Origin: a virus | Lineage: Duplodnaviria; Caudoviricetes | Virus record (IMG/VR): IMGVR_UViG_3300034272_001471 | Span: 1 to 61,028 of that record | Length of the DNA stretch: 61,028 nt | Strand: one strand, 5' to 3' | Shown: piece after piece, positions 11,597 to 28,875 of the stretch | Position numbering within the stretch: position 1 is the stretch's first letter | Layout of the letters: the number at the start of each line of letters is the position of its first letter | Notes under the pieces: generated by a model | Database searches by the model: none | The model's input: only the letters and a program-made list of their open reading frames with translations | What the model was told of the DNA's origin: nothing | Program-made: the position numbers and the translations under genes

Positions 11597-13742
11597 GGCG
11601 GAGCAGTCCTATGGTGCCGTAGTCAGGCAGACGCTGCGGTGGGTAGCCGTCGATGGACCCGTACACCCAGCAGTCGCCGTCCTCCACGCAGACATTGAAG
11701 TCGTCGGCCGATGTCAAGATCATCCCCGGCACCCACTCGCCGTACTCCTTGGGCCAGCCCTTCGGCTTCTGGTTCCAATGCCACCAAGAATTGGGGATCA
11801 TCCACACGCGGAACGGGAAGAACTCCTTGGTGTCGTCGTAGCCGGCGATGGCCATGTCATGTTTCCACCCACCCGGCGTGCGGTAGTGGACGCCCTTGGC
11901 GTTGGAGTCCACTGACCAGGACGCATACTGCCCGGAGTGAGCGGCGTACCCATTGAACAGGGCGTCCATCAGGTCAGCCTGCGACCGGACCTGTGTGATC
12001 ACGCCCACCTTATTCTTGCGGCAAAGCTCGCGGACGCTCTCCGGCACACCCGACCGCCCCCAGCGGGCGCCGATGGAGGAGTCGTACTTCGACAGGTCCA
12101 CCACCCCGTCGTACTTGGTGCGAGCCAGGAAGCCAACGTCCCGCTCAAACCTGGACGCCAAGCCCGGGCTCATGCCCTGGCCGCCATGCCCACGCGCCCC
12201 GTAGGTGGGCTCGGTGGCGCCCATGCGGAACCACTCTTCGGGCTCCTTCTTCACCAGGATCTCAACCGCCCTGGTCATGTCCCGGGCATTGCGACTACCG
12301 TGGCTGACGCAGTTATGCACTGCGTACCCGTTGGCGATGAATGCGTGGTCGCACTCCACCTCCAAGCAATAAACCGTTCCAGCAAACGGCGATACCTCAA
12401 TGCTGGCAACCCGCGCCGAGAATCCGCCATCGACCTTTACGGTCAGCGACCTCCGCCCGCCTTCCAATGCTGGTGGTCGGAGCTTCGCTGGAAACAAAGC
12501 GGCTGCGCTGTCGCCGTAGAAATGCACCTCGGAGGCGACCTTTGACCTGCCCCGCGGTTTGCGAGCGACCTCCGTGCATCGGATGCCGCAGGACATGGAC
12601 AAGTATTTCATGTCCCTGACAAGACCGCGGCATACAGATACGCCGCTGGCTCGGCACATCTTGTACTTGGACTTATGCCTAAGTCCGTTTTGCACATGCC
12701 CATCGCCCTCCATCCAGCCGCGCACGCACGCAAGACGAACGGCCGATGGCGAACCAAGGATTTCTTTAGGGACCCGCTTGGTATAGGTGTTCCCCTCGCC
12801 GCACGCCCGATATATCCACCTTGCAAATGGCGCGCACGGAAACTCAACGAACAGACAATTCGGCTTTGATGGCAGCACCCGAATCTTTGCAGGCACTCCG
12901 AGCTTGTCCTGCAAAATGCTGCGCAAGCACTTGGCGATATGAACCTCGTCGCGGCACAGGTTCCACACAAGGTTGGTAGCCGCGCCGCGTTTCGACTTTC
13001 CTGTTGACCCTTCGGCAAGCCATAGGCCGATGACCCACGCCATGTCGGCGTCCAAGGTTACATGCCTGTTGCACTCGTACTTAGCCCCGGAGATCCGCAC
13101 CTTGCCATCGCCGGCTCGGATTCGTCGGGGCTTGGATGCAACCTGCGCAAACTCATTCGGGTCTTGCGAGCATCCATCCTCATTGGCAAGGTCTATTGTG
13201 TGCAGATGCTCGCTGGCAATGCTTGTCGCCGGCAGCAGCACCCGCGATCCCTGGGCCAGTGCGTCGGCCCGAACCCAAGCCCTCTCTGATTCATTCAGCG
13301 GCGAGACGAACAGGTGGTCGGGAGTTGCTACAACAGCGTCCAAGCACCCCTCTGCACGCACGGAAACGACGCTGCCTGTGTACGGCTTGCTGAATGTCGA
13401 AAGCACTCGCCGCTTCCCGCCGAAAGGCGATGCGATAATGTCTCCACTCAGCACATCTTCAATGGCCTTTTCGGTGCCGTCGCCCATTCGCACAAGGGTG
13501 CCGGCAACGAAGCAGTCTCCAGTCGTTTGCTTCTCAGTAAAACATTTGGAGTCCAGCTTCTGTGCGTACTGCCAAAGGAGCGCACGCTTCCCGATGCCGA
13601 CGCCTTTGATGTTCGGTTCAGAGAAGTACTGGTACTTCTGCGTCTCCAGGAACTCCGAGTTGGCGCGGGCGTTGAACGTCCAGCCGGAGAGGCCGTCTTC
13701 GTACGCCCTTAGCAGGGAGTGCGGGGTGTCGAACTCACTCAC
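11589..13742 (-). CDS. Papain-like (C1-type) cysteine peptidase interrupted by an intein
   Basis: Spliced form reads Q-T-T-G-D-C-V-S-H-G (oxyanion Gln, catalytic Cys); later WKHDMAIAGYDD (His) and NSW (Asn); GTG start. Confidence 0.75.
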   Translation of the reverse strand: MSEFDTPHSLLRAYEDGLSGWTFNARANSEFLETQKYQYFSEPNIKGVGIGKRALLWQYAQKLDSKCFTEKQTTGDCFVAGTLVRMGDGTEKAIEDVLSGDIIASPFGGKRRVLSTFSKPYTGSVVSVRAEGCLDAVVATPDHLFVSPLNESERAWVRADALAQGSRVLLPATSIASEHLHTIDLANEDGCSQDPNEFAQVASKPRRIRAGDGKVRISGAKYECNRHVTLDADMAWVIGLWLAEGSTGKSKRGAATNLVWNLCRDEVHIAKCLRSILQDKLGVPAKIRVLPSKPNCLFVEFPCAPFARWIYRACGEGNTYTKRVPKEILGSPSAVRLACVRGWMEGDGHVQNGLRHKSKYKMCRASGVSVCRGLVRDMKYLSMSCGIRCTEVARKPRGRSKVASEVHFYGDSAAALFPAKLRPPALEGGRRSLTVKVDGGFSARVASIEVSPFAGTVYCLEVECDHAFIANGYAVHNCVSHGSRNARDMTRAVEILVKKEPEEWFRMGATEPTYGARGHGGQGMSPGLASRFERDVGFLARTKYDGVVDLSKYDSSIGARWGRSGVPESVRELCRKNKVGVITQVRSQADLMDALFNGYAAHSGQYASWSVDSNAKGVHYRTPGGWKHDMAIAGYDDTKEFFPFRVWMIPNSWWHWNQKPKGWPKEYGEWVPGMILTSADDFNVCVEDGDCWVYGSIDGYPPQRLPDYGTIGLLRHG
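12312..13514 (-). mobile_element. Intein (401 aa) with LAGLIDADG homing endonuclease
   Basis: Starts CFVAGT; block B ATPDHLF; LAGLIDADG-like VIGLWLAEGS and CVRGWMEGDG; ends VYCLEV...AVHN followed by Cys. Confidence 0.92.
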
Positions 13743-14139
13743 TCTGCCGCTCCACTTCCTTGCAGGCAGCGACGATCTGCCCTGCCACCACCTCATCCAC
13801 AGGCACGTTGTCCTGGGTGTAGTGCTTGGCCAGCACCGCTTCGACTGCCTTGTCTAGGCCGGGGTACTTCCCGACGAGGCCGGTCCCGCCAGCGGCCAGC
13901 CGGAGCGCGTCTTGGTAGACGGCGCGCCACGCTGACGTTGTGGTGATCAGCCGGCCTTTGTCCCTGGCCATCACCTCACCGAGCGCTCGGTACAGGCGGC
14001 CCACTGTGGCTCGGTCGGCATAGGAAGCCGACGCTAGAGCCGTGCGTACGGGACCAGTCGCGGCTGGCCGCTGGGCTCCGACAACAAACGACAACGCCAC
14101 CAACGCAACGGCGAGTGCCAGGGGGATGTGCCTATTCAT
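13735..14139 (-). CDS. Secreted or membrane-anchored hypothetical protein
   Basis: Signal-like MNRHIPLALAVALVALSFVVG. Confidence 0.6.
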   Translation of the reverse strand: MNRHIPLALAVALVALSFVVGAQRPAATGPVRTALASASYADRATVGRLYRALGEVMARDKGRLITTTSAWRAVYQDALRLAAGGTGLVGKYPGLDKAVEAVLAKHYTQDNVPVDEVVAGQIVAACKEVERQSE

Positions 14140-14342
14140 TTGAGCAGCGCCTGAAGAAGGGAGTTGCACGCGGCCTTGACCTCCTCCGACTGAGCGTTGT
14201 CGCGGATCTTGATCACGCTCTCCAGGTGCCGCAGCGTGTTGCTCTTGGCCGGCAGCCGGAATCCAGATACCTGCGGGAGGGCGAACTGCCACAGCACTAC
14301 AACTCCCAGGACGGCGAGCGACAGGATTTGAAAGAGACTCAC
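14136..14342 (-). CDS. Small membrane protein
   Basis: GTG start overlapping the subtilase stop; N-terminal TM helix. Confidence 0.55.
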   Translation of the reverse strand: MSLFQILSLAVLGVVVLWQFALPQVSGFRLPAKSNTLRHLESVIKIRDNAQSEEVKAACNSLLQALLK

Positions 14343-16720: not shown

Positions 16721-17101
16721 CTAGCATTCCTCGGGCTCCTGTGAGTGCATCAGGGTCGTCAAGGTTTCCACCCAGTGGTTTGGCCGGGGGGTTGCCACGC
16801 CATGCTCAACGAGGTAGGCGCTCAGGCTCTCGCCGGACTGCAGGTCGCAGAGGTCCCCAAGCACCCGGCCATACTCGTCTCGCAGCCATTCGGCCGTATC
16901 CAGCCGCAGCCGGCAGTGGTCGGCGTGGACCTCCACCCAGTCGCAGACCGCCTGCCGGGCGGCGTCGTCGCAGTCGCAGCCGTGGATTCGCATGTACATC
17001 GAAACCTGGGACTGGAGCTGGGGGCATGCCACCCGCAGGTGGACGGTGTCGGGCCGGGTCACGCGGATGACCTGTGCTGTCAAGGGGTCCGATGTCGCCA
17101 T
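16721..17101 (-). CDS. Thermonuclease (SNase)-like OB-fold protein, degenerate
   Basis: VIRVTRPDT...RIHGCD...RDEYGRVLGDL. Confidence 0.55.
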   Translation of the reverse strand: MATSDPLTAQVIRVTRPDTVHLRVACPQLQSQVSMYMRIHGCDCDDAARQAVCDWVEVHADHCRLRLDTAEWLRDEYGRVLGDLCDLQSGESLSAYLVEHGVATPRPNHWVETLTTLMHSQEPEEC

Positions 17102-17478
17102 CCGGTGGTGTTCTTCTGCCTCTGTTCTTCGTAGGCCGGCGGCAGTGGCTCTGGCTCGTAGCCCAGGTGCTGCTTGTGCCGAAGGCCGGCAAGAAACTGG
17201 GGGTCAAAAAACTCTGGGTCACTCTCACGCTTACAGGCGAGCAGTATACCCTTGTTCAGATCAGGAAGTCCAGTGACTTTGCTGCCGGAATGGAAGACGG
17301 CGTGGCAGTTCTGACACAGGCTCAGAAGGTTGCGGCGATCATGCTTGCGACCGGCCCCCTGGACCAGATGGTGAATCTCCAGGCGGCGCCGCATGTCCAT
17401 CTCCGGCCACCAGCAGACTGCGCAAGACATGTGACTTGCCGCAAACTCTTGTAGAGTCACCTTGTCTGCCCTGTTCAC
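17080..17478 (-). CDS. HNH endonuclease
   Basis: CAVC...LEIHH...NLLSLCQNCH. Confidence 0.75.
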   Translation of the reverse strand: MNRADKVTLQEFAASHMSCAVCWWPEMDMRRRLEIHHLVQGAGRKHDRRNLLSLCQNCHAVFHSGSKVTGLPDLNKGILLACKRESDPEFFDPQFLAGLRHKQHLGYEPEPLPPAYEEQRQKNTTGWRHRTP

Positions 17479-17816
17479 AGACCCTCCCCTTCTTCTTATC
17501 AACCTCTGATCCAGTTCTGCGTCTCGGAGTAGCGGTCCATGTTCACTGACTGAAGGCTCGGTATGGGCGCACGGCGACCAATCCCTGGTGTTGAGCCAGG
17601 GTTGGCCGCCGCCCATGTCCACCGACCGTTAGGACGTATACGGGCGTCTCACAACCGCCGGGGCGTGAGCATGCGACCTGCTTATCGGGCATCCTGGCTG
17701 CCCGTGTGACTTGGCCCTGTCGCTTTCGGCTGGCCTACCCGCTGCGTCACAATCCCTTTTGGTAGCGGGGATAATGCCGGGCGGCCAAAAGGTTGACCCA
17801 AACCCGACCGGCATGA

Positions 17817-18425
17817 TCACTCAAACTCAATCGTCGCATCCCATTCCGGGATGACAGTGCGACATTCTGCCACAGTCGCCCGGCAGAAATCCACTAACTT
17901 TGTGCGCTCGTAGTTCTTCACCGATAAAGTCATTCGGCACAGAGTCCTGGCGTAGCGGGCCATGGTCATGCAGTGCCTGTTCGTTTCCTGGCGGCCCGCG
18001 ATTCCGAGCTCCTGCCGGATCTGAGCGCCGCGCAGGTAGGCGGTCCACTCGTCCAGGATCATGGTCGGCCTGTCGGCCCATGGCCCAGCCTCACCCTGCC
18101 GGCGGTAGGTGGCGTAGATCGTCCCCCGCTCTGGCTCCGGGACGGCGTCGAACACTGCGGCCGTCCGCAGCGGCGGAATGGGAACCCACCGCACCCGCCC
18201 GCCCATGGCGTACAAGCCATGCTCCCGACCGCGGAACCGGGACAGGAAGTGACTGCCCTCATGCCCGTACGTGATCAGGTCTGGCTCCCGGGCGTCCGTA
18301 TCCCTCGGCAGGCGGCCGGCAATGTCCCGCAGCGTCGGGCCAAACCCCTGGGGCGGCGACCAGATCAGTGGCACCTCCGCCCGGCAGACGGCTGAGAGCA
18401 ACAGGAATACCGCAAAAGCCCGCAT
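17817..18425 (-). CDS. Secreted hypothetical protein
   Basis: Signal peptide-like N-terminus; HEGSH (HExxH-like). Confidence 0.6.
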   Translation of the reverse strand: MRAFAVFLLLSAVCRAEVPLIWSPPQGFGPTLRDIAGRLPRDTDAREPDLITYGHEGSHFLSRFRGREHGLYAMGGRVRWVPIPPLRTAAVFDAVPEPERGTIYATYRRQGEAGPWADRPTMILDEWTAYLRGAQIRQELGIAGRQETNRHCMTMARYARTLCRMTLSVKNYERTKLVDFCRATVAECRTVIPEWDATIEFE

Positions 18426-18612
18426 GTAGGACTAATGCCCTGCCAGGGCCCCTGGCGTGCCGCCTAAAGCCCGGCCGCCCTGGGGCGACCTCCCGCCCGG
18501 CCGGCGGCTGAAGTGCCGCCAGAACGCACAGGCGGGGCATCCACCGCCGCCCCGCGCTGCCTAAGAGCATGGAGCCCATCAGCAGACCGCAGGGCGACGA
18601 TGGATGGTGGCA

Positions 18613-18903
18613 TCACTCCTCGCGGACCAGCGACACGCCGAGCTCTCCGGGCTGTGCCGGGGCGATGGTGTCGGTGGCCACAAACTCCACCACGGCCGGC
18701 TGGCTGACGTTGCCTGCGTCGTCAACGTCCACCAGAGTCAAGACGACGGCAGCGTCCTGCGGCACCGTCACCTCACCGAAGGAGGTGGAGTCCGCACTAA
18801 ACGAAGTCGTCGTCGTTTCGCCGCCGACTGTCACCGACAGCCGCCTGGACACCACATCAGAATCCACAGCCGGCCCGGCCGTTACCGCATAGACCAATCC
18901 CAT
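18613..18903 (-). CDS. Beta-rich (Ig/Fn3-like) hypothetical protein
   Basis: GAGG SD; VDVDDAGNVS...DTIAPAQPG. Confidence 0.6.
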   Translation of the reverse strand: MGLVYAVTAGPAVDSDVVSRRLSVTVGGETTTTSFSADSTSFGEVTVPQDAAVVLTLVDVDDAGNVSQPAVVEFVATDTIAPAQPGELGVSLVREE

Positions 18904-19056
18904 AGAAAACCTCGCTCTGCGGATGAGACAAAAACGCACCGCAAAAGGCTGGCGCATCCGAAACGACAGCCTGCGGAGTTCGCTTGCAATAGATCGTCCA
19001 AACCACATCATGTGCGCTCCCGTCAGTCAGTGGGCGCGACGGGCCGTAGGGCGCGC

Positions 19057-19171
19057 TATACGGCTCCGCATAACGCCGGCGTCCGCCGTTACGCCGCAGG
19101 CTGGCGTTGATTCGGCGGGGTGATATACGGCAGAGGGTGCGATATACGGAACCGCATAAATGTGGTTCTGT
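19057..19171 (+). other. attI-like site: core CGCATAA-ATGTG-GTTCTGT with upstream direct repeats
   Basis: GTT at 19165 without an attC left arm; repeats tatacgg(ct/aa)ccgcataa at 19057 and 19143, gatatacgg at 19122 and 19141. Confidence 0.6.
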
Positions 19172-19173
19172 GG

Positions 19174-19476
19174 CTAGTCGGCAAGCGATTGCCTCAACTG
19201 TGATAGCGCCTTATGCGCTTTCCTTCGCTCTGGTGTGTTCATCGCGACAAGGCATTTGTCACTGAACGGGTCTATCTGCGCCAGGCATGCGCCAATATCG
19301 TCTAGCATCGCGTCCACATCAGGATGATTGTTTCGGAATCGCATGCCGTACATGAATGCCGCAAGTGCCGCCGGAGAGTCGCCCCCGTCCACCCCGCATA
19401 GACGGCAGTCGCGCTGAAACTCACGAAAACCCACAGAACCACGCATTGCATCAGACCGCTCATCAACGTCGCTCAT
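19174..19476 (-). CDS. Cassette 1 hypothetical protein
   Basis: AGGAGG SD and ATG inside the attC1 loop; MSDVDERS. Confidence 0.65.
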   Translation of the reverse strand: MSDVDERSDAMRGSVGFREFQRDCRLCGVDGGDSPAALAAFMYGMRFRNNHPDVDAMLDDIGACLAQIDPFSDKCLVAMNTPERRKAHKALSQLRQSLAD

Positions 19477-19522
19477 TGAATCATCCTCCTTTGTTCGCGG
19501 CTGCTGAATGCAGCCGTTCTCG
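19433..19522 (+). repeat. attC-like site 1 (90 bp)
   Basis: acagAAC cacgcattgcatcagacc...ggctgctgaatgcagcc GTTctcg. Confidence 0.75.
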
Positions 19523-19789
19523 CTACCCACCCGCAACGATCCTCTCGCAATGCTTGCATCGCTGGACTCCCTTTGCGAGCAGGCGAGCGGCGTACTCTGT
19601 CTTTGGTTTCTCGTAGCACCACGCGCCGCAAACAGCGCGGCCGGCGTTGTCGGTGCCGCCAGTGTCAGCAATCTTGATGCAGTGCAGGCGGGTCGCGTAC
19701 CAGCCCGCGAACCACGCGAAAGCACCGTCTGCGGCAGGCAGTTTCTCATGTAGCAGTTTTGGCGATTCGGCAACAGGTTTTTCGGTCAT
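19523..19789 (-). CDS. Cassette 2 hypothetical protein (Cys/His, possible Zn-binding)
   Basis: GGAG SD; LHC...VCG...CKHC. Confidence 0.6.
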   Translation of the reverse strand: MTEKPVAESPKLLHEKLPAADGAFAWFAGWYATRLHCIKIADTGGTDNAGRAVCGAWCYEKPKTEYAARLLAKGVQRCKHCERIVAGG

Positions 19790-19818
19790 GTCGTCTCCAG
19801 TAACATTGTGCCACTCAG

Positions 19819-19867
19819 CGAGAACCAAGCGATGCTGCGGACGAGCCGCTGATCGCAAGCGTTCTGT
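19819..19867 (+). repeat. attC-like site 2 (49 bp, minimal)
   Basis: cgagAAC caagcgatgctgcggacgagccgctgatcgcaagc GTTctgt. Confidence 0.8.
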
Positions 19868-19869
19868 GG

Positions 19870-20064
19870 CTACTTGCTCGCCTTTTTCTTCACGCACCGC
19901 AGCAACGCCTTGAGCCAGTGTGCGTCTCGCTCGGATAGCAGTTGCGGGCCTTTCGACGGGAACGCCTCCATCTTGTGAGCGTGCTGCTCCACACGCTTGA
20001 TGGCGTGCTTCAATGCAGACACCAAGTAGTATCGCTCGTCGTCGTCCAGCGTGACCTTCATCAC
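19870..20064 (-). CDS. Cassette 3, gene b, hypothetical
   Basis: ORF track; stop abuts R' of attC2. Confidence 0.55.
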   Translation of the reverse strand: MMKVTLDDDERYYLVSALKHAIKRVEQHAHKMEAFPSKGPQLLSERDAHWLKALLRCVKKKASK

Positions 20065-20303
20065 TTGCCTCCAGCCTGACGCTCCAGTGCCTCAATCCGC
20101 GCCCGAAGGACTTGCGTTTCTTTTATCAAGTCGCACACCACATCCGTGTCTCGGCTGTACGCGCGAGCGATCGTCCAATCAGTGGCGGCGAGTTGCTGAA
20201 TCCTGTAGAGCGCCCATCCAGAAAACAACAGGGCCGCGACGCTCGCCATCAACGCCACAGAACCAAGCGATGCAACGGACGGCCCTGCTACGTCATGTGT
20301 CAT
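20061..20303 (-). CDS. Cassette 3, gene a, membrane-anchored coiled-coil protein
   Basis: Start inside the attC3 loop; TM helix followed by coiled coil. Confidence 0.6.
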   Translation of the reverse strand: MTHDVAGPSVASLGSVALMASVAALLFSGWALYRIQQLAATDWTIARAYSRDTDVVCDLIKETQVLRARIEALERQAGGK

Positions 20304-20345
20304 GGTGAGTCCTCAGGTGGCCGCCGTTGATCTTCCGTGTTCTCA
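20257..20345 (+). repeat. attC-like site 3 (89 bp)
   Basis: acagAAC caagcgatgcaacggacggcc...ggccgccgttgatcttccgt GTTctca. Confidence 0.8.
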
Positions 20346-20702
20346 TTTCGTCCGTTCAAGCAGCCCGCGAAGAGCCACCACTCGGTCAGGCTCTTTCCCG
20401 CCGTACCACTCAGCGTCCAACTCGCGCCGGATAGCCGCCTCAATCGCCTCACGCTCCTTGTCGGTGAGCCCCCCGAAATCCACCGGGTCCATCGCCTCCC
20501 GCTCCGCGTCGGTGAGCGCTGGCAAGCGGTAGAGCGGAACGATGCCGTGATTCCCAGTTACTGCCTCGTCAATCGCTTTGGCCTCTTCTTCGATGCCATA
20601 GACATCGTAGATTCGCTGGCCGTCAGCAAGCACCACAGCCCACGCGCACGGCTCCCCGTGAGAACCACGCGATGGAATGGACTGCTCATTGGCGTCTGTC
20701 AT
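20343..20702 (-). CDS. Cassette 4 hypothetical protein (AWAVV / PLY / LTDxEREA family)
   Basis: Start inside the attC4 loop; stop overlaps R' of attC3. Confidence 0.7.
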   Translation of the reverse strand: MTDANEQSIPSRGSHGEPCAWAVVLADGQRIYDVYGIEEEAKAIDEAVTGNHGIVPLYRLPALTDAEREAMDPVDFGGLTDKEREAIEAAIRRELDAEWYGGKEPDRVVALRGLLERTK

Positions 20703-20747
20703 GTCTCATGCTCCTGTGTTCGCAGCCATTCATCGCTGGCGTTCTCA
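20659..20747 (+). repeat. attC-like site 4 (89 bp)
   Basis: tgagAAC cacgcgatggaatggactgc...gcagccattcatcgctggc GTTctca. Confidence 0.8.
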
Positions 20748-21080
20748 GTGTGTTCGTTCCAGCAGCCCGTCAATGACCGCCGCGACCTCCACGCTGTCGG
20801 CAAAACGCCCCGCGAAGTAGTCCTCTCGCACTCGCCGCAGCACCTTTCGCAACGCCGTCCGCTCCTCGTCGGTGAGCGTGGGATGCGGCTTCTGCACCAG
20901 CCCGAGCCTGAACAGGGCGGTCACAACATTGAAGGCAAATGGCGATACGCCGAGCTGGTCGCACCAGCGTTCCGCCGCAACTGCCATGGATGACCGCTCC
21001 GAAAACATCGCCTGCCCATGCTCCCCGCGAGAACCAGCGGATGCAGGAGACGGCTCGTTGGTGTCGTTTGATTGGCTCAT
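20745..21080 (-). CDS. Cassette 5 hypothetical protein (LTDEER...GLLER)
   Basis: Start inside the attC5 loop; stop overlaps R' of attC4. Confidence 0.7.
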   Translation of the reverse strand: MSQSNDTNEPSPASAGSRGEHGQAMFSERSSMAVAAERWCDQLGVSPFAFNVVTALFRLGLVQKPHPTLTDEERTALRKVLRRVREDYFAGRFADSVEVAAVIDGLLERTH

Positions 21081-21118
21081 GGTTTGTTCCTCGCCGCTCC
21101 TGATCCTGCGTGTTCTGT
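21028..21118 (+). repeat. attC-like site 5 (91 bp)
   Basis: cgagAAC cagcggatgcaggagacggc...gccgctcctgatcctgcgt GTTctgt. Confidence 0.8.
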
Positions 21119-21120
21119 GA

Positions 21121-21396
21121 CTACTCTGCCTTCCAGCCGTTGTTGATGTACGCCAGCACGGCGTGGAATGCAGCCACCTCGCCAGCCGTCCTAGCGGCGT
21201 CTGCGGTCAACGGCTCGCCGCCTGCCTTTGCGATCAGGCCGATAGTGTCTAGCCGCGTCTCGCGCTTCTCAATCTGCCACCGCATCCAGTCGATGAGGCT
21301 GCCATGCTGCCTGTTCATGGCATTGCAAAAAAACTCCTGCGAGTCGCGCAGACCTGAGATAAGGTTGTCTCGCCGTTTGATTGCGTTGTAGAGCAT
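21121..21396 (-). CDS. Cassette 6 hypothetical protein
   Basis: AGGAGG SD; ORF track. Confidence 0.6.
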   Translation of the reverse strand: MLYNAIKRRDNLISGLRDSQEFFCNAMNRQHGSLIDWMRWQIEKRETRLDTIGLIAKAGGEPLTADAARTAGEVAAFHAVLAYINNGWKAE

Positions 21397-21428
21397 TTCA
21401 ATCCTCCTGTTGTGTCATCCAACAAACC

Positions 21429-21477
21429 ACAGAACCAAGCGATGCTGCGGACGAGCCGCAGATCGCAAGCGTTCTGT
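21429..21477 (+). repeat. attC-like site 6 (49 bp, minimal; near-identical to site 2)
   Basis: acagAAC caagcgatgctgcggacgagccgcagatcgcaagc GTTctgt. Confidence 0.8.
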
Positions 21478-21480
21478 GGG

Positions 21481-21747
21481 CTACTTGTCTTCCGTTGGCA
21501 GGGCTGGAAGCGGCACCCAGTGGGTGACTGCCACTTCATTCCCGCGATCAATCCAGCAATGGCGACTGTATAGCGTGGCCGTGTAGCCGACGAACGGTCG
21601 CCCGCCGGCTGTCAGCGCCGCAACGTGCTGCCCAATATCAGGCAGCCGCTCCGACACCGGAATCCAACCGCCAAGGATCGCTTGACGGTTCGCCACAGAA
21701 CCAGCGGATGCAGGAGACGGCTCGGGTGTGTCGTTCGGTGTAGTCAT
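21481..21747 (-). CDS. Cassette 7 DUF551-like phage protein
   Basis: WIPVSERLP...VTHWVPLPALP; start inside the attC7 loop. Confidence 0.75.
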   Translation of the reverse strand: MTTPNDTPEPSPASAGSVANRQAILGGWIPVSERLPDIGQHVAALTAGGRPFVGYTATLYSRHCWIDRGNEVAVTHWVPLPALPTEDK

Positions 21748-21784
21748 GCCTTCTCCTTGCCGCTCCTGATCCTTCACGTTCTGT
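21695..21784 (+). repeat. attC-like site 7 (90 bp)
   Basis: acagAAC cagcggatgcaggagacggc...gccgctcctgatccttcac GTTctgt. Confidence 0.8.
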
Positions 21785-21787
21785 GGG

Positions 21788-22039
21788 CTACTTGCGAGCC
21801 TCGCGGATCGCCTTTGCCATCGCATCTTGGATACGAGGGTGTATCGGCACAGCCTGCGACTGAATCGCCCTCGGCTTCCTGCCGTAGACCAAAGGCCACA
21901 CTCTCCAGTCGGCTCTGGTGTCTGCGATCAGCATTCGCGCAACAGCATCGGCGTCCTCTTCGCAGCGAAATATCTCATGGTGGTGAAAACGCTCGCCAAC
22001 GCGAACCACTGCATACGCAACGGGGGTGCGATCGCTCAT
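21788..22039 (-). CDS. Cassette 8 hypothetical protein
   Basis: GGAG SD; PVAYAVV...VWPLVY. Confidence 0.6.
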   Translation of the reverse strand: MSDRTPVAYAVVRVGERFHHHEIFRCEEDADAVARMLIADTRADWRVWPLVYGRKPRAIQSQAVPIHPRIQDAMAKAIREARK

Positions 22040-22057
22040 GTCTATACTCCGTTCGCC

Positions 22058-22147
22058 ACAGAACCAGCGGATGCAAGAGACGGCTCGGCACCGTCCTGCG
22101 TGTTGTCGTTGCTCATGTCTCGCCGCTCCTGATCCTTCACGTCCCCA
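22058..22147 (+). repeat. attC-like site 8 (R' degenerate, GTC)
   Basis: acagAAC cagcggatgcaagagacggc...gccgctcctgatccttcac GTCccca. Confidence 0.7.
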
Positions 22148-22156
22148 CTCTCCAAC

Positions 22157-22363
22157 TCATGCCCGATCGGGACTATCGCAGCCAATTTCGCCGCTGCGCG
22201 CCGGGATCGTCTCCCATTTTCGCGCCGGATGTGCCCGCTCGGGACAATGCCTAGCGTTCGCTCGCAGCAGACGAATCTCGTCGTGTGCCGCAAACAGCCG
22301 GATCGACTGATACGCTGCCGACATCCAACCAGCGGCGGCCAGTATCCACGGCACCCAACTCAT
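22157..22363 (-). CDS. Small membrane protein
   Basis: N-terminal hydrophobic helix. Confidence 0.45.
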   Translation of the reverse strand: MSWVPWILAAAGWMSAAYQSIRLFAAHDEIRLLRANARHCPERAHPARKWETIPARSGEIGCDSPDRA

Positions 22364-22857
22364 ACCCGTAATCCCTCGCTTTCCGTCGCTTTTTCAATAC
22401 GACCGGCTCGCCCTAGTAGCCTCCGCACCACCTGCTCGGTGCGATCCATCGCCCGGTAGCAGGCGTCGTCCGCTACTCGCCCCAAGATCTCCCGCTCCTC
22501 GTCTGTGAGTGTGGGCTGGCGGTAGAGCGGGACGACCCTGTCGCACCCGGTGGCCCGGGGCCACGCATCTTTGATCCGAAATGCAATGCTTGTGATCTCG
22601 CCGTCAGGCCGCACCACAGCCCACGCCACTGCCCCCTGTGCAAGATGCCCCCGCCCACCCGTCGCTTCTCCCTTTGTATCGGGCCGCGTGTCGTCTAGGG
22701 GCAAGCCTCCATTCTTGTCGCCGGCCGGTGACTGCCGCTCTGGTGCGCTCCCCGACGTTCCGCCGGAGCCAGAGCCGAATAGAGACTGTTCGATTTGCCC
22801 GCCGTGCTGGACGCCAAGACGGTAGGCGGCAAGCAACGCTGCAGAGTGTTCGGTCAT
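22360..22857 (-). CDS. Hypothetical protein sharing modules with cassette genes
   Basis: AVAWAVV...VVPLYRQPTLTDEERE. Confidence 0.6.
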   Translation of the reverse strand: MTEHSAALLAAYRLGVQHGGQIEQSLFGSGSGGTSGSAPERQSPAGDKNGGLPLDDTRPDTKGEATGGRGHLAQGAVAWAVVRPDGEITSIAFRIKDAWPRATGCDRVVPLYRQPTLTDEEREILGRVADDACYRAMDRTEQVVRRLLGRAGRIEKATESEGLRV

Positions 22858-23135
22858 GGCCACCTCGGGTACAGGAGACAACCTTCAGACTGGTAGCCGT
22901 TCATCACCTCAATGGCCGAGATCCGCGGGAACTCCTTGGACATCTCGGTGGCAATGGCTTCCTTTGGCATGGTGTCGATCCTCGCCCGGTGAGCCGCCAC
23001 CCAGTTGTTCATCGCCGCCATGTCCTCCGAGCAGTCAGGGCCGGAGGCTTGGCGGTCAACCCAGGTGCGGATCACGTAGTTGAACGTGCGGAACTTCAGG
23101 ATGTTTTCCCACACCGCCTGCTTGCCGAACATCAT
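22854..23135 (-). CDS. Hypothetical protein
   Basis: ORF track; coupled overlap. Confidence 0.55.
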   Translation of the reverse strand: MMFGKQAVWENILKFRTFNYVIRTWVDRQASGPDCSEDMAAMNNWVAAHRARIDTMPKEAIATEMSKEFPRISAIEVMNGYQSEGCLLYPRWP

Positions 23136-23138
23136 GTG

Positions 23139-23756
23139 TCACCCCATATGCTTACGAGCTTTTGCTGCAGCCGAGCCACTTCGGCCTGGAGCATCTGGAT
23201 TCGTTTTCGCAACGTATCGTTCTCTTTCCTCAGTCTCTCCGCCTCCGGAGCAGAAGGTGTCGGTTTGTCCATCTACGAGGTCCAGGTACAAGTGGGGAAA
23301 CAATAGTCCGACCAGCTCCTCCGCTGGCCGTAGGTGCGCCTTGGGTGCCACCAGAATCGGAACGTCATGCCCCCGCCCGCGGTCGCGTGTGACTGTCTCC
23401 TGCCAGGAGTCGTCCCTGTCCAGGATGGTGAGCCACACCCAATGGCCAGTTGGCTTGGAGAGGTACACGTAGATGAGGTTGCGGTAGCACTCCATCCCCA
23501 TACCGCGGAGGTCGTCCACGTAGACCGTGTCGTAGGGATAAGACTCGGGGCTGTCGAACGACAGACTCCGCTCCTTGATCTCCACGGAAAACAAAGCCAA
23601 CGCATCAGGTGTCTCAACGTGCCCGGTCCTTTTACATCGCTGCTTAACAACCAGCTTCTTCCCGTGAGCCACCGACCGGCCGAGATCGCGGATCGAATCG
23701 ACCCACCTTCGTTCCGCCGCATGTCCATTAGCGAGTGCCGTGGTAAAGGAGCGCAT
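23139..23756 (-). CDS. PD-(D/E)XK nuclease-like protein
   Basis: GHAAE...TPD...VEIK. Confidence 0.55.
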   Translation of the reverse strand: MRSFTTALANGHAAERRWVDSIRDLGRSVAHGKKLVVKQRCKRTGHVETPDALALFSVEIKERSLSFDSPESYPYDTVYVDDLRGMGMECYRNLIYVYLSKPTGHWVWLTILDRDDSWQETVTRDRGRGHDVPILVAPKAHLRPAEELVGLLFPHLYLDLVDGQTDTFCSGGGETEERERYVAKTNPDAPGRSGSAAAKARKHMG

Positions 23757-24303
23757 ACTGGTTCCACCAGGAGAAGGCATTCATGGCCGCAAGCACTTGC
23801 TTGCGATTCACCATGGTGCCGACGATCACACCGTCCGCGCGCAGATCCTCTACGCGCCTGTACAACTCTTCGGGCGAGACATCGTCGGGCTGCAGGCCGC
23901 AGTCCAGGTACTCCAGATCCTCCGGTATCGGGTCCTCGGCCCGGATCTCGTCGGCCTGCTCGCGAACCACACGCGCCCAGCGCACAGACCGGCCGAAGAT
24001 TTCAGCGATGTCCTGGGGCTCCAGCCCCCAGTCCCGTCCGACAACCAGCGCCAGCCTTTCCGGGCTCGGGACACGCCCCACACCCCGCAGCAGGCGAACT
24101 GCACCGCGAGTCTGCTCCGTCTCCAGTTGCAGTTGCTTCGCGGCCGTGATGGCCGGGATCTTGTTGACGACGCACATCCGCCACAGGTCGGGGGCGTACG
24201 CCAAAGCATGCCGCAAGACGACGCCAGAACCTCCTCCAGTAACCATCTTTCTTCTCCTCCTTGAGAAACGACTTCGGAAACACATGCTCCACATCGAACG
24301 CAT
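23728..24303 (-). CDS. Hypothetical protein with HTH-like segment (start uncertain)
   Basis: GLEPQDIAEIFGRSVRWARVV. Confidence 0.5.
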   Translation of the reverse strand: MRSMWSMCFRSRFSRRRRKMVTGGGSGVVLRHALAYAPDLWRMCVVNKIPAITAAKQLQLETEQTRGAVRLLRGVGRVPSPERLALVVGRDWGLEPQDIAEIFGRSVRWARVVREQADEIRAEDPIPEDLEYLDCGLQPDDVSPEELYRRVEDLRADGVIVGTMVNRKQVLAAMNAFSWWNQYALLYHGTR

Positions 24304-24338
24304 TCAGGACCTCTTGGACCGTCCAGTCCAGTAGGTGG

Positions 24339-25841
24339 TCAGGCCGGTTGTCGCTCACGCCTTCTCTCCCTTTCACGCACAAAAAGGTTCCGCACCCAGC
24401 CCTTAGTGGTGGTGGATGCCCATCGCAGATACCAGTCAGGCAGGGTGTTCATCATTCGGCCGGCGAACTTCCCCTTGAGCGGGTTCATATACGTGCCGGC
24501 GTTCCGCCGCCCTTCGCCCGGCTCAAAGAACTCCCCCTGCACCGTGCCCTTAGCCTGCCCACGCATGGCCTTCCGCCGGGCTTCGATCTCCTGGGCAGCC
24601 AGCCGGCGCTCCAGCTCCTGTTGAGCAAGGGCATCCATCGCCTCCGGAGTCAGGGGCTCTTCCGCTTGGGCCGCCGCCTTCTTGACGACCTTCTTAACGT
24701 CCTCGTCGGCCGTGACGAACATGTCCACGGCTGTGACCAATCGGTGGTCAAGGCTTGCATCCGTGCAGTCAACAATTTTGAAACGAGGCTTTCCCGAAGC
24801 TGCGATGCGTGCAATACGACCGGCGGGATCCGAGCCCTCGTAGTCAACAACTCCGGGGAGAGGACGAGTGGCTCGGCCAACGCATTGGAGCCAGAAGGAT
24901 CTGGACTTAGTTGGTCGGCCAAGGATGAGGGTGGCTGTTGGCGGAAAATCGAAACCAACGGCAACAACTTGGCAATTGACAAGAACCTTCGCCTGTCCAT
25001 TCTTGAAACTCCTGAGTGCCTCCTGCCGCTCTTCTTCGGGCTGGGTGCCGTACACGTACACGGCCGGGATCCCGTAGTTGTTGACGAGGTAGTGGCAGAC
25101 GCCCTTGGCTGATGCGACCGATGGTGTAAAGACAACGGTCGGCCCCTCCATCTCCTCCTTGGTGATCAGGGCAATGCGATGAAGGTTGGCCTCCTTCTCA
25201 ACGGCGTGCTGCAGTTGCGCCTGGTTGAAATCCCCGCCGCTGACGCTGACCTCAGACAGATCCAGGTCTGGCACGCGGGCCAACTTCCAGACAGGGGGCG
25301 CGGCCCAGCCATTGGCGATAGCCCACTGCACATCCAGGTTGCAGATCTCGCGCTCGTAGTAGTCCCGCATCGGGGTGCCGTCCATGCGGAACGGCGTGGC
25401 GGTGAACCCGGCCACCATGGCACCGCGGTCATTGAACCAGCGGAACATCTCCAAGCATGCCGGGCTGAACTGCATGTGGGCCTCGTCCACAATCACCAGA
25501 CTGACATCCGTAAACTTCTTGTACCGGCCGCGGATCAGCGTCTGCTTGCAGCCGACGATCACCTTTGGCGACCACCACTCGTTCTCGGTGTATCGGTACT
25601 CGCCCATCTCCAATGCCGGGTCCATGCCGATCACTTCCCGCACCTTGTCTGCGGCCTGCCAGACCAGCTCGCGAAGCGGCGGCATGATCAACGTCTTGCC
25701 CTCCGTTCGATTCGCCATCTCAACAAACATGACGGTCTTGCCGCCGCCCGTGAACACGCCCGTCAGCGTGGACTTGGCGCCTTCGGCCTTGGCCCGCATG
25801 TTCGCTTCAACGATGGTGCTTTGGTAATCGCGTAGTTGCAT
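24339..25841 (-). CDS. SF2 DEAD/DEAH-box helicase (Res-subunit-like)
   Basis: LRDYQ, TGGGKT, IVDEAH, TATPFR, GFDFP, QCVGRATR. Confidence 0.92.
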   Translation of the reverse strand: MQLRDYQSTIVEANMRAKAEGAKSTLTGVFTGGGKTVMFVEMANRTEGKTLIMPPLRELVWQAADKVREVIGMDPALEMGEYRYTENEWWSPKVIVGCKQTLIRGRYKKFTDVSLVIVDEAHMQFSPACLEMFRWFNDRGAMVAGFTATPFRMDGTPMRDYYEREICNLDVQWAIANGWAAPPVWKLARVPDLDLSEVSVSGGDFNQAQLQHAVEKEANLHRIALITKEEMEGPTVVFTPSVASAKGVCHYLVNNYGIPAVYVYGTQPEEERQEALRSFKNGQAKVLVNCQVVAVGFDFPPTATLILGRPTKSRSFWLQCVGRATRPLPGVVDYEGSDPAGRIARIAASGKPRFKIVDCTDASLDHRLVTAVDMFVTADEDVKKVVKKAAAQAEEPLTPEAMDALAQQELERRLAAQEIEARRKAMRGQAKGTVQGEFFEPGEGRRNAGTYMNPLKGKFAGRMMNTLPDWYLRWASTTTKGWVRNLFVRERERRRERQPA

Positions 25842-26247: not shown

Positions 26248-26877
26248 TCACTCCTCCTTCTTCCAGACCTTGTTGAACTCCTGCTCACACCGCTTGTACA
26301 CCTCGGGAGCAACCGCTCGCTCCTTCGCCCTCAGTCGGACGGTGTCCAAGTGTTTCTGCGCCGCCGCAATGTCCGGGGCGGTTGCGATAGCCTTCTTAGC
26401 CTCCGCCTCGTACTGCAGGGTCTTGGCGTGATTGGCCGGCGGGGCTGGCTCGGGCTGCGAGACACTCTGCCCGTCGTCGTCCGCCTCGCCACTAAACCCT
26501 CCAGCCAAGGCCATCAGCAGCGTCCGTTTCGCATATGTCATCGCAGCACCGAAGGACTGCATGTCGGCCTTGCCCATCAACAGCGGAGCGATGGCAGAGA
26601 TCCACTCACCGCTCTGGTGCCGCAGGGTGCCCATGACGATCCACTGATTGCCGATCAGGCCCGGCCGGAAATCCGGCAGACTGATACCCTGCTTCGTCAG
26701 CGGGCCTCGCAGCGCCTCACAGCAGGCCGCATACGAGGCGAACTTGCTGCGAAAGTGCGGGTTGGCACTGTCGTACTTCACGGTCGGGTAGTCGGCCTGG
26801 GCTGCCGCCAGGGCTTTCGTCAACTGGCCGGTGGCGGGCGAGCCGCTCGGCCCCAAGATCATGTTGCTGTCGTTCAT
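26248..26877 (-). CDS. erf: ERF-family single-strand annealing protein
   Basis: NPHFRSKFAS, LRHQSGEWI, QSFGAAMTYAKR, DDDG. Confidence 0.85.
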   Translation of the reverse strand: MNDSNMILGPSGSPATGQLTKALAAAQADYPTVKYDSANPHFRSKFASYAACCEALRGPLTKQGISLPDFRPGLIGNQWIVMGTLRHQSGEWISAIAPLLMGKADMQSFGAAMTYAKRTLLMALAGGFSGEADDDGQSVSQPEPAPPANHAKTLQYEAEAKKAIATAPDIAAAQKHLDTVRLRAKERAVAPEVYKRCEQEFNKVWKKEE

Positions 26878-27731
26878 AGAACCACCACCTCCTCCTGCTT
26901 CCGGGCCCACCGCGGGATCTCCAGCTCCTGAATCTCTCCGCTATCCAGCGGCAGATAGGAGCCGGTCGAACGACGCAGCCGGACCTCCTCCATCACACTG
27001 AGCAAACGCTGCCCAGCCTCCTCAATAAAGGCAGCCGGCAGGCGAAACACCCGGCACTGATACGGCGGGATCGTCTGCACAAAGACGAACGGCATGCTGA
27101 ACTGCGGCCACCCAACCTCCATGGCCCCGCGGCAGTACAGCCACGCCTGCTCTGCGTACCCGTACGAACACACGCTCTTGGGCAAAAGCTCCCACGGCTG
27201 GGAGGTGGTCTTCAGATCCCACCAAAGTTCATCCGTGACAGCGTCGGGCCGAACCTTCAGCTTGTGGCCGTTCTCCTCCTGCCAGAACACCGACATCTGC
27301 GTCTCGGTGGTCGCGTCAAACAGCGACTTGGCCGCCCGGTTATAAAACGCATTGTGCGTCATCTGCCGGTAGACCCACGCCTGATCCTCCGTGCAGCAGA
27401 TCCCAGTCTGCTCGGCAGCCCACTCCTTGTACGCCTTGGTGTTTCTGGAGCCGTTGGCCCCCAGCACGCCCTCCGGTGCAACGCAGACCAGCTCGTCGAA
27501 CAACTGCCCGGCCACCATCCCGGTCAGCAGCCGGTCGAACTCGTCCCCAGTCCTGGTGGCCGAACTGCCGGCAAACATCGACTGGCCATTGTCCATCCAC
27601 AACTGTGCCTCCCCGCCGCCCCTCGCCACCTGACAGAGGTACGACCGGCTGTCAAACGTCTTGTTGCCGTGGTACGCGGCATTGGACATGCCGACGATCT
27701 TGACCGGCCCCTTCGATACATCGATGTTCAT
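26874..27731 (-). CDS. RecE/exonuclease VIII-like PD-(D/E)XK exonuclease
   Basis: MSNAAYH, KVRPD, DLKTT, YGYAEQAWLY, FVFVQT.PPY. Confidence 0.82.
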   Translation of the reverse strand: MNIDVSKGPVKIVGMSNAAYHGNKTFDSRSYLCQVARGGGEAQLWMDNGQSMFAGSSATRTGDEFDRLLTGMVAGQLFDELVCVAPEGVLGANGSRNTKAYKEWAAEQTGICCTEDQAWVYRQMTHNAFYNRAAKSLFDATTETQMSVFWQEENGHKLKVRPDAVTDELWWDLKTTSQPWELLPKSVCSYGYAEQAWLYCRGAMEVGWPQFSMPFVFVQTIPPYQCRVFRLPAAFIEEAGQRLLSVMEEVRLRRSTGSYLPLDSGEIQELEIPRWARKQEEVVVL

Positions 27732-27931
27732 TTGTACACCTCCGCTTGTGAAAAAGCCCATCCGTGGGCACATGCCATCCTTGTGTTTAGCGCCCGCCCC
27801 GGAACGCTTCGCGAAACTGTCCAACGACCAGAAGGCCGAGACAGAGCTCCCACCTGTGCAGCCAGATGCACAGGGTCAGGCCAGCCAGATAGGCGACCTT
27901 TAAGATTGGGGCGGCCGATTCGCAGAGGGCG

Positions 27932-27966
27932 ATGAGGCGGCTGCTAACCAACTGAGCTAGCTGCCC
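27932..27966 (-). pseudogene. tRNA 5'-half remnant (CAT anticodon, Met/Ile2-like); candidate attP
   Basis: Minus strand GGGCAGC-TAGCTCAGTTGGTTAG-CAGCCGCCTCAT; no T-arm. Confidence 0.55.
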
Positions 27967-28047
27967 GGATGTTTGACCGTACCGCTTTTGCGGGGGGTTC
28001 CCACCGTGACGAAGGCTGCTAGAAAAGCCCCTCTCTTGAGGTGCAAC

Positions 28048-28875
28048 ATGACGCTCATCGACTTGGCCCGGCAGTACCACAACAGAGTCGGCGGATCGCC
28101 CGGCTACCTGGAGCAGTTGGAGTGCTTCGTTCGACGGCTTCCATGGAAGGCCGCTGAACTCTCTCCAGACAGGATCGATGCCTACCTGACTGACGCGCTG
28201 CGACATTTGGCTCCCTCCACTGTCTGCAACCACCGAAAAATGCTGCGTTGCCTGCTGCATTTCGCCGCCGAGACGCGGCTTGTGGACGGCAATATACTCC
28301 GGCCTCTGCGAAAGGTCAAGCGAAATCCGCCGAACCCAAGAGCGTGGAGTCACACGGAGATTCGGTGCCTTTTGGATGTCGCCGCCAAATTGGTTGGTGG
28401 TCGGAAGTGCCCGCGGAGCCTGCTCGCTAGGGCATGGATTCTGGTGGGCTACAGCACCGGGCTGCGACTTGATGACTTGCTGTCGATTCGCCATGACCAA
28501 ATCCGTGGCCAGAGGTTGTGCCCAAGCCAACGCAAGGTCGGCCATCCGCATGTCTGCTGGCTGGATGACCTCGCCATGGCAGCCATACGCGAGCTGCCAG
28601 TGCTTGGGCCGCGTATCTTTGGCGATCTGATCTGCCGAGACAAGGCCATGGCCATGATGCGGCAGATTGTCCGGACGGCCGGCCTGCCTGGATCAACGAA
28701 GTTTCTGCGGCGCAGCGGTGCAACCTACTGCGAGATCGCCGGCAAGGACGCCAGTGGACACTTAGGACACCGGACGCCCAACATGAAAGCCTACTACGTT
28801 GACAGGCTCTTGCTGGCCGAAGAAAAGAAGCAGGAGCCGACGACGCTGCCCCTAGTTCTGGCGGACCAGCCCTAG
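28048..28875 (+). CDS. Tyrosine recombinase/integrase
   Basis: TGLR, QRK, KFLRRSGAT (HxxR variant), LGH, YY; GAGG SD. Confidence 0.85.
   Translation: MTLIDLARQYHNRVGGSPGYLEQLECFVRRLPWKAAELSPDRIDAYLTDALRHLAPSTVCNHRKMLRCLLHFAAETRLVDGNILRPLRKVKRNPPNPRAWSHTEIRCLLDVAAKLVGGRKCPRSLLARAWILVGYSTGLRLDDLLSIRHDQIRGQRLCPSQRKVGHPHVCWLDDLAMAAIRELPVLGPRIFGDLICRDKAMAMMRQIVRTAGLPGSTKFLRRSGATYCEIAGKDASGHLGHRTPNMKAYYVDRLLLAEEKKQEPTTLPLVLADQP

Follow-up and report, generated by a model that had tools for sequence, protein, structure and literature searches.

A probable integron-like cassette array without an integron integrase in the early operon of a lake-water phage

We analysed a stretch of 61,028 nucleotides (nt), hereafter the window, which is the whole of the IMG/VR virus record IMGVR_UViG_3300034272_001471 and carries a completeness rating of 100%. 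Between positions 19165 and 22148 small minus-strand genes are separated by imperfect palindromes, and we consider it likely that this stretch is a genuine cluster of attC-type sites without an integron integrase (CALIN), organised like an integron array and lying in the early operon of the phage. A first-pass annotation of the same letters had proposed a shufflable, integron-like cassette array at this place. The proposal is supported by the attC geometry of the sites, by the match of bases across each cassette, by joints within the GTTCT boxes of related phages and by an array of such sites on a contig with a bacterial integron.

Integrons are regarded as bacterial devices, and reports of attC clusters in phages are recent and concern a small set of cultured phages. 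What is new here is that one attC family appears to organise accessory early genes of many uncultivated lake-water phages, with identical cassettes on diverged backbones, a conserved putative entry site and a sequence link to a chromosomal integron. The window holds no integron integrase, as had been stated in the first-pass annotation (the model TIGR02249 finds no match), and none of 39 array-bearing viral records has a protein that passes the cut-off for this enzyme. As neither the window nor any of these 39 related records yielded an intI, we file the array as a CALIN; the pair that makes an integron complete, intI with an adjacent attI, is missing here.

Sites and cassettes of the array

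All eight of the palindromes described earlier are present within 19165–22148, together with a lone GTTCT box. The sites stood where they had been placed, and the exact G of the G/TT crossover had to be corrected, to 19165, 19516, 19861, 20339, 20741, 21112, 21471 and 21778. The sites and the conserved stretch to their left are as follows.

19050–19165, plus strand: attI-like conserved array end, with two TTATACGG-nn-CCGyATAA palindromes and a half site, ATGTG, and the joint G19165/T19166
19165–19173, plus-strand coordinates: lone GTTCTGTGG
19431–19524, minus strand: attC1, long; R'' CCACAGAAC, R' GTTCTCGCT; the loop holds the ribosome-binding site and ATG of gene A
19817–19869, minus strand: attC2, short, intergenic; R'' AGCGAGAAC, R' GTTCTGTGG
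20255–20345, minus strand: attC3, long; start of gene D in the loop
20658–20747, minus strand: attC4, long; start of gene E in the loop
21026–21119, minus strand: attC5, long; start of gene F in the loop
21427–21479, minus strand: attC6, short, intergenic; its own arms pair perfectly
21693–21786, minus strand: attC7, long; start of gene H in the loop
22056–22148, minus strand: attC8, long, the last on the top strand; R' degenerate, GTCCCCAC; a leader-only open reading frame (ORF) in the loop

The minus strand is both the gene-sense strand and the strand on which the sites fold. There, AGAAC and GTTCT form an R stem, followed by an internal loop of 5/4 nt and an L stem interrupted by two bulges of one base each, C and then T, 6 base pairs (bp) apart, closed by a terminal loop of 5–45 nt. 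The unpaired G and A that had been noticed in the left arm of the plus strand are real and are the complements of these bulged bases. Folding of the bottom strand, a check advised at the outset, gave the described shape in seven of the eight sites on the minus strand and in five on the plus strand. The site attC8 gives a full-site fold on neither strand; in its R' the triplet GAC replaces AAC on the folding strand, and it is the exception to the AGAAC/GTTCT boxes present in the other seven. Because of the positions of the bulges we take the minus strand to be the bottom one, which would place the crossover at G/TT of the plus strand. Folding energy alone is weak evidence: only the two short sites are well separated from shuffles, most clearly attC6 with z values of –5.5 and –6.1, and the long sites range from –0.4 to –2.4. 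All ten of the window's matches to CACAGAAC fall within 19165–22064; in 100 dinucleotide shuffles the mean is 1.9, and the highest count, 6, stays below ten.

The sites come in two forms. Measured from AGAAC to GTTCT, the short form (attC2 and attC6), which is intergenic, spans about 45 nt and the long form (attC1, 3, 4, 5, 7 and 8) about 86 nt; with the 7-nt boxes counted, the long sites have 89–91 nt. The loop of the long form contains a ribosome-binding site, an ATG and the first 15–20 codons of a minus-strand gene. Read on the plus strand, each cassette begins with TTCT and variable bases, continues with the reversed gene and ends with its own attC. The genes are listed below, where numbers beginning with L denote sources of the comparison set and identities are those of amino acids (aa).

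19174–19476, minus strand: gene A, 100 aa, no family match; cassette A, 19166–19516; copies 95–97% identical in L064 and L065
19523–19789, minus strand: gene B, 88 aa; cassette B, 19517–19861; a copy 98.9% identical in L038
19870–20064 and 20061–20303, minus strand: genes C and D, respectively; shared two-gene cassette, 19862–20339
20343–20702, minus strand: gene E, 119 aa; cassette E, 20340–20741; paralogue of the backbone gene at 22360–22881
20745–21080, minus strand: gene F, 111 aa; cassette F, 20742–21112
21121–21396, minus strand: gene G, 91 aa; cassette G, 21113–21471; copies 93–100% identical in 11 viral loci
21481–21747, minus strand: gene H, 88 aa, DUF551; cassette H, 21472–21778; Pfam PF04448 with E 2.1e-8, PHROG 60
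21788–22039, minus strand: gene I, 83 aa; cassette I, 21779–22141; copies 98–99% identical in 6 viral loci
22042–22116, minus strand: leader-only ORF of 24 codons inside attC8, which runs through the R box and ends 2 nt ahead of the gene I ATG

Gene H is the only cassette gene to which Pfam and PHROGs gave a name.

The bases that follow each GTT had been said to pair with the far end of the same cassette. We find this in all eight cassettes of the window, over 6–10 complementary nt, for example between GTTCTCGCT and AGCGAGAAC or between GTTCTCA and TGAGAAC; the two arms of a single site belong to the same class in just three of seven. The same relation appears outside the window. Across 103 consecutive site pairs the four bases after GTTCT and the four before the next AGAAC are complementary at 2.90 of 4 positions, as compared with 1.61 in shuffled pairs (standard deviation 0.11), and none of 2000 shuffles reaches the observed value. 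The complementarity of a site's own arms gives no signal in these outside sites (1.43 vs 1.55 shuffled). Thus the integron rule that the distal R' bases match the R'' belonging to the next cassette holds in the window, in the outside pairs and at the GTTCT joints.

A degenerate 18-mer taken from the left arm matches at least 120 IMG/VR contigs, although some of the single matches may be chance. Our site detector, which demands AGAAC, GGTTCT and a paired inner stem, so that the AGAAC/GTT feature is present by construction, returned 196 sites in 85 of 138 sources (137 loci and the window). In this family the arrays run on one strand, with up to 8–9 copies spaced 250–600 bp apart, and the lengths from AGAAC to GTTCT cluster at 45–46, 52 and 86 nt. 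The commonest boxes are ACAGAAC/GTTCTGT and TGAGAAC/GTTCTCA.

We then compared the sites with one fixed structural model, consisting of the 5-nt AGAAC, the spacer, 4 bp, a bulge, 6 bp, a second bulge and 3 bp, and counted a fit when at least 11 of the 13 pairs formed. The model fits 160 of the 164 unique sites from the 85 sources. The bulges lie on the 3' arm of the folding strand and are always 6 bp apart, the inner one being C in 126 and the outer one T in 117 of the 160; the spacer has 5 nt on the 5' arm in 126 and 4 nt on the 3' arm in 127. The variable positions of the L box pair with their own partners at 8.29 of 9, against a shuffled mean of 6.44 (standard deviation 0.08, maximum 6.66, 1000 shuffles), and several Watson-Crick pair types occur per position. 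On the gene-sense strand there are 62 G.T pairs vs 4 A.C pairs, and the structure is therefore selected on that strand.

A sequence-free geometry scan, which demands AAC, GTT, the spacers and the bulged 13-pair stem and for whose model the short sites are too small, recovers five of the six long window sites with one other match in 122 kb, and nine scattered matches in 615 kb of 17 relatives without arrays. The sole window match off the array (45601–45679, plus strand, 12 of 13 pairs, CTGCAAC...GTTCGGC) lies inside a gene of the portal region and is probably due to chance. The closest backbone relatives, 17 loci found through the helicase, have no arrays, and one of them has a single short site. 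In one array-less backbone relative, L007, a single site at 9489–9577 (plus strand) lies just upstream of the helicase; its attC geometry is perfect, with all 13 pairs formed and the bulged bases C and T, and its boxes, TTCTAAC...GTTAGGC, look canonical. In searches of the literature on integrons or attC in cyanophages, viromes and viral genomes, supplementary tables aside, no description of this site family came up.

Cassette exchange among phages and a bacterial integron

The cassettes and the backbone of the phage differ in how closely they are related to other viral contigs. For cassettes A, B, C, G and I the encoded proteins have counterparts 95–100% identical on other viral contigs, compared with only 55–82% for the helicase, the ERF-family protein, the PDDEXK nuclease and the product of the gene at 23139–23780. 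Both levels occur on one contig in L068 and L077, where the backbone is 56–70% and the cassette 97% identical.

Comparison of relatives, another check that had been advised, showed that cassettes are gained, lost and reordered and that the joints fall within the GTTCT box. In L064 cassette I adjoins A, and the two high-scoring segment pairs (HSPs) meet in a shared CGTTCT (window 19515–19520 and 21777–21782); since they join window 19520 to 21777, L064 is without cassettes B–H. The order in L065 is A, other units and then B, with an HSP of exactly 19165–19519, and L123 has an HSP of exactly 21471–21782. Several HSPs start or stop at plus-strand GTTCT boxes, namely 19165–19519, 21471–21782 and 21778–22142. 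Cassette G is present twice in L058. Across the loci body G keeps its distal arms and has a downstream neighbour of five kinds. The cassette's own attC moves with it for A (three of three records) and for B, and as the 3' arm in I; it does not do so for G in L151, L152 and L153.

The array begins at a conserved end. The 115 nt to the left of the first G/TT show a mean column identity of 81% in eight viral contigs, and HSPs over this attI-like stretch have identities of 80–92%. At least five different first cassettes adjoin this one left side, and the contigs diverge directly after GTTCT. A putative attI-like entry site would be expected to behave in this way. It also contains CCGCATAA, which presumably resembles a XerC arm.

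Joints were also sought in four sequencing runs, represented by Logan contigs, which break at repeats; most joints had sides shorter than 31 letters or unknown letters between and were not counted. A joint from 22139 back to 19515 occurs in three of the four runs (side 38) and places cassette B directly after attC8. One run contig has attI-like letters directly before cassette I. Because such contigs show presence only, these joints give weak support.

The same sites occur in a bacterial genome. The strict short-form pattern matched three records of a collection with one genome per species, one of which, L181, is a 15.8-kb contig titled Cyanobium sp. FGCU52 (NODE_303). This contig carries chromosomal genes (lipoyl synthase, 455 bits, and genes of ABC, TolC and HlyD types), and next to them an integron integrase, IntI, that scores 457 bits against a cut-off of 265 and reads toward the array. 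The first joint is G/TTCGAAGG; the 2-kb AT-rich cassette has CCTTCGAAC at its end, a match at nine of nine positions. The phage-type sites of L181 are the following.

13070–13160 of L181: phage-type site
13486–13575 of L181: phage-type site
13780–13832 of L181: phage-type site
14111–14200 of L181: phage-type boundary site, with R'' GTGAGAAC and with R' GTTAGAG, complementary to the R'' of the next MazEF cassette

After them come two copies of a MazE/MazF cassette with CTCTCTAAC...GTTAGAGAG sites (CTCTAAC/GTTAGAG), which fold on the same strand as the phage-type sites and have two bulges 6 bp apart. The site at 14111–14200 is a G/TT joint between a phage-type site and an unrelated cassette. The geometry scan finds five sites in the L181 array, on one strand only. 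The L181 array, a sedentary chromosomal integron, resembles the phage array in its attC family, its folding strand and its cassette families, which are 80–93% identical to phage cassettes at the nucleotide level. It differs from the phage array in having IntI with an adjacent presumed attI, MazEF cassettes and the AT-rich 2-kb cassette.

L189, a second contig of the same genome, has a long site that is non-coding and whose R box reads CTAAC. It also contains a cassette often seen in phage arrays, one more site with its bulges equally spaced, and an integrase fragment. A pattern scan of 201 genomes of the family to which L181 belongs gave 30 matches vs 4 in a reversed control.

Two further features of L181 were observed. 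Its first cassette, at 11165–13154, is 2 kb long, has 38–45% G+C in a contig of about 60–66%, contains three ORFs and ends in a site with phage-type geometry. The presumed attI at 10995–11165 has a palindrome GGTTCACGG-ACC-CGTGAACC and a repeated GGTGGTTCACGGAC, a loose parallel to the phage attI-like end with its TTATACGG-nn-CCGTATAA palindromes and its GGTGATATACGG repeats.

Taken together, phages and bacterial integrons appear to trade genes by means of these cassettes. On the top strand the conserved attI-like end stands first and is followed by eight cassettes, each ending in its own attC. The minus strand folds into an R box of the form xxxxAGAAC/GTTCTxxxx, a 5/4-nt spacer, an L box with a C and then a T bulge, and a variable loop, which in long sites carries a ribosome-binding site, an ATG and a short leader. 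In the mechanism that we propose, the cassettes would be made, and may still be moved, by a host integron integrase, either in the course of infection or while they reside in an integron of the host. The ERF-family protein and the PDDEXK nuclease of the phage may add exchanges inside the conserved parts of the sites.

A wider picture, which we put forward tentatively, is that this widespread group of lake-water phages has in its early operon an integrase-less platform, made of the attI-like site and the attC arrays, that borrows the IntI of the host in infection for the insertion, excision and reordering of small early genes, which might serve host takeover or anti-defence. Cassettes would be traded in both directions with host integrons, and the attC hairpin would double as a portable translation-start module of the messenger RNA (mRNA), providing ribosome-binding site, ATG and leader for any cassette inserted behind it. 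If the sites are active, the mosaicism of early genes would reflect site-specific cassette exchange, beyond homologous recombination alone; phages would be both vehicle and reservoir for integron cassettes, and the attC type could serve as a marker linking phages to hosts with a matching integrase.

Known systems and competing explanations

According to Nivina et al. (2016; PMC5027507), in the parts of that account drawn on here, an attC site forms a bottom-strand hairpin with R and L boxes and recombines in AAC, the sole universally conserved triplet. Its extrahelical bases are separated by a 6-bp stem, the last being a conserved T and the first usually G; its unpaired spacer has 5–6 nt, its terminal structure varies and its length is 57–141 bp. 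The phage sites share the hairpin, the AAC/GTT triplets, the bulge spacing, the outer T and the variable loop, and as in canonical attC the crossover leaves the distal R' bases on the next cassette. Their unpaired central spacer measures 5/4 nt, as compared with the published 5–6 nt.

CALINs have been described in phages before. Qi et al. (2023; PMC9892861) reported 17 in cultured phages and found that IntI1 recombined five of six tested phage attC sites into attI1. Like those, the present array combines attC sites and cassettes in a phage genome without IntI. Unlike them, as far as the parts of that report compared here extend, it has eight sites, and up to nine in relatives, of one homogeneous GTTCT-type family (85 of 138 sources), an attI-like end, bottom-strand genes, starts in the attC loop and the same site family in a chromosomal integron.

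Several observations weigh against an attC-type array. The commonest phage box, ACAGAAC/GTTCTGT, fits two of the four degenerate positions of the canonical RYYYAAC/GTTRRRY and thus departs from the consensus; the first extrahelical base is C vs the usual G; the short form, at about 49–53 nt, lies below the published length range; and the cassette genes occupy the bottom strand, opposite to what is usual in cassettes, with ORFs that overlap the site. The attI-like end sits at the distal end of the operon and not next to a promoter. The integron integrase model gave no match above cut-off in the window or the 39 viral records. The link to a true integron comes from one bacterial genome with two loci, the short form was matched in only three records of the one-genome-per-species collection, and in the family scan ten inspected loci had no full site by pattern, L189 being a CTAAC variant.

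The same holds for the flanks of the moving bodies. Upstream of body G most loci have a short core, but L151 has a long coding one, L152 one of 52 nt and L153 none. Of the core upstream of body I the 3' arm alone is retained, and the loop and 5' arm vary. Comparison of 15 pairs of near-identical bodies showed consistent conservation of neither flank, and the ends of 31 HSPs obtained by strict extension cluster only at the sense-strand AGAAC boundary. Neither the flank test nor the HSP-end histogram settles the side of the crossover alone. It is plausible, as the phage has ERF and nuclease genes, that the mixed-core cassettes reflect homologous exchange within conserved stretches of the sites, in addition to site-specific exchange. 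In L153, at 2001–2273, a 93% identical homologue of protein G has no attC-like site on either side, possibly a context that precedes the cassette or one that the gene entered after leaving it.

These flank data bear most directly on an alternative in which the sites are portable linker or regulatory hairpins, like the PeSL elements of T4-type phages, the shuffling is homologous recombination between arrays by the ERF-family and PDDEXK proteins, and the likeness to attC plays no part. The genes for both proteins lie 4–5 kb from the array. The different cores on both sides of body G, the chimeric upstream core of body I, the inconsistent linkage of flanks to body in the 15 pairs and the lack of IntI in the window and the 39 viral records all fit such a process, and there is a precedent: in T4-type phages, small genes are shuffled as modules through the repeats that lie between them, and mini-circles are formed (PMC2839356). 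The likeness to PeSL lies in conserved stem-loop repeats between small non-essential early genes, in modular shuffling and in circular by-products. However, homology gives no reason for complementarity across a gene, outside the constant boxes, at sites whose own arms are unrelated, and it leaves unexplained the two bulges 6 bp apart, the wobble bias of one strand and the G/TT joints with unrelated MazEF cassettes behind a true IntI. Moreover, a PeSL, as characterised in the portion of that account used here, is a promoter with a terminator and is driven by homology, whereas the phage sites have no promoter-like part and possess attC geometry and cross-cassette complementarity. We count the defining PeSL parts as absent because no sigma-70-like promoter was found in 18000–24500, a scan that is itself uninformative, with 0 matches vs 1.4 expected; none of the seven terminator-like sites in the same interval coincides with a whole palindrome. 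We regard this alternative as unlikely.

A quite improbable alternative keeps site-specific recombination and replaces the host IntI by a recombinase of the phage itself, acting on the sites or on their R-spacer-L halves. The candidate, overlooked in the first-pass annotation, is a divergent Xer-like tyrosine recombinase of 300 aa, P0001.

27973–28875, plus strand: P0001, with PF00589 at 14–15 bits and the XerC/XerD models at 26–28 bits, far below cut-off

IntI is itself a Xer-like enzyme, and P0001 has tyrosine recombinase motifs with weak similarity to XerC/XerD. A homologue or distant relative is found in 14 of 24 array-bearing records, and PF00589 exceeds its cut-off in 13 of the 24. Yet P0001 is conserved at 50–76% identity in backbone relatives with or without an array, including homologues 50–69% identical in 11 of 12 array-less relatives, and ten of the 24 array-bearing records, four of them 92–100% complete, have none. 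BLASTP of P0001 against the IntI of L181 gave no significant similarity (best E 1.6), and the integron integrase model has no match in the window. These results argue that P0001 is a backbone gene and not a partner specific to the array.

The gene for P0001 lies on the strand opposite to all its neighbours and is overlapped by a minus-strand ORF of 254 aa (27787–28551) that has no family match and is probably spurious. A 117.8-kb viral record, G008, which holds L162 and L166 and matches cassette I and the backbone, has two P0001 homologues, of 68% and 58% identity; it may consist of two related phage genomes joined in one record.

A further alternative would make the hairpins primarily elements of the mRNA, serving translation starts, coupling or RNase III-type processing, with DNA recombination as a by-product. 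The folding strand is the mRNA sense, with its excess of G.T over A.C pairs, and the long-site loops carry a ribosome-binding site and ATG. The leaders of long sites cross the R box into the cassette body, where they are fused in frame or stop just before the body's own start, at 2 nt before the ATG in the case of attC8. A similar short ORF, ORF-11, lies over the crossover point of attI1 and aids translation of the first cassette (PMC8876359). It shares with the phage leaders its encoding by the site, its passage over the crossover point and a coupling of translation to the cassette, which in the phage may occur. Unlike ORF-11 as presented in the part of that source considered, the phage leader is found in the attC loop of every long site, is often fused to the cassette protein and lies on the bottom strand. 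Translation starts nested in attC loops are a design of which the attC and phage-CALIN literature compared here holds no description. Nevertheless, the loop of some long sites of equal length lacks an ATG, and the short sites lie between genes. A bias toward one strand is expected equally of a bottom-strand DNA hairpin, the complementarity across cassettes is left unexplained, the genes run antisense to the array in the bacterial integron, and Rfam gave no family match at E up to 1. We hold a primary mRNA role to be very improbable.

RNase III hairpins, REP-like elements, inverted-repeat mini-transposons and double-stranded sites of Xer/dif type were dropped as main readings, as they leave the cross-cassette complementarity, the bulge geometry and the integron context unexplained.

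Phage genome and neighbouring genes

The phage is an uncultivated lake-water phage. A nucleotide search of the cultured-phage collection INPHARED with the array region gave no match, the helicase is at most 36% identical to proteins of cultured phages, and 24 public metagenome runs of lake water or freshwater, one of them a possible source, are listed as containing all or part of the stretch; no RNA run is among them. Beyond about 11.5 kb the genes run on the minus strand. In the direction of transcription the array is preceded by genes of replication and recombination type and by several small backbone genes, and it sits upstream of an HNH endonuclease gene, beyond which lie portal, terminase and tail-type proteins.

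17080–17622: HNH endonuclease gene, with the array upstream of it
24339–25841: helicase, upstream of the array in the direction of transcription
26248–26910: ERF-family annealing protein, upstream of the array in the same sense
26874–27824: PDDEXK nuclease, likewise upstream of the array

A contig from a Pirellulales metagenome-assembled genome with two sites looks phage-like, one protein of its structural region being 38% identical to a window ORF, and it gives no firm host.

The backbone gene at 22360–22881 (minus strand) lies directly upstream of the array and shares DNA repeats of 83–87% identity with gene E (20343–20702); the repeats common to the two genes encode a VPLYR..LTDEERE stretch. 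Because this gene is a paralogue of gene E, the cassette family E also has a fixed copy outside the cassettes.

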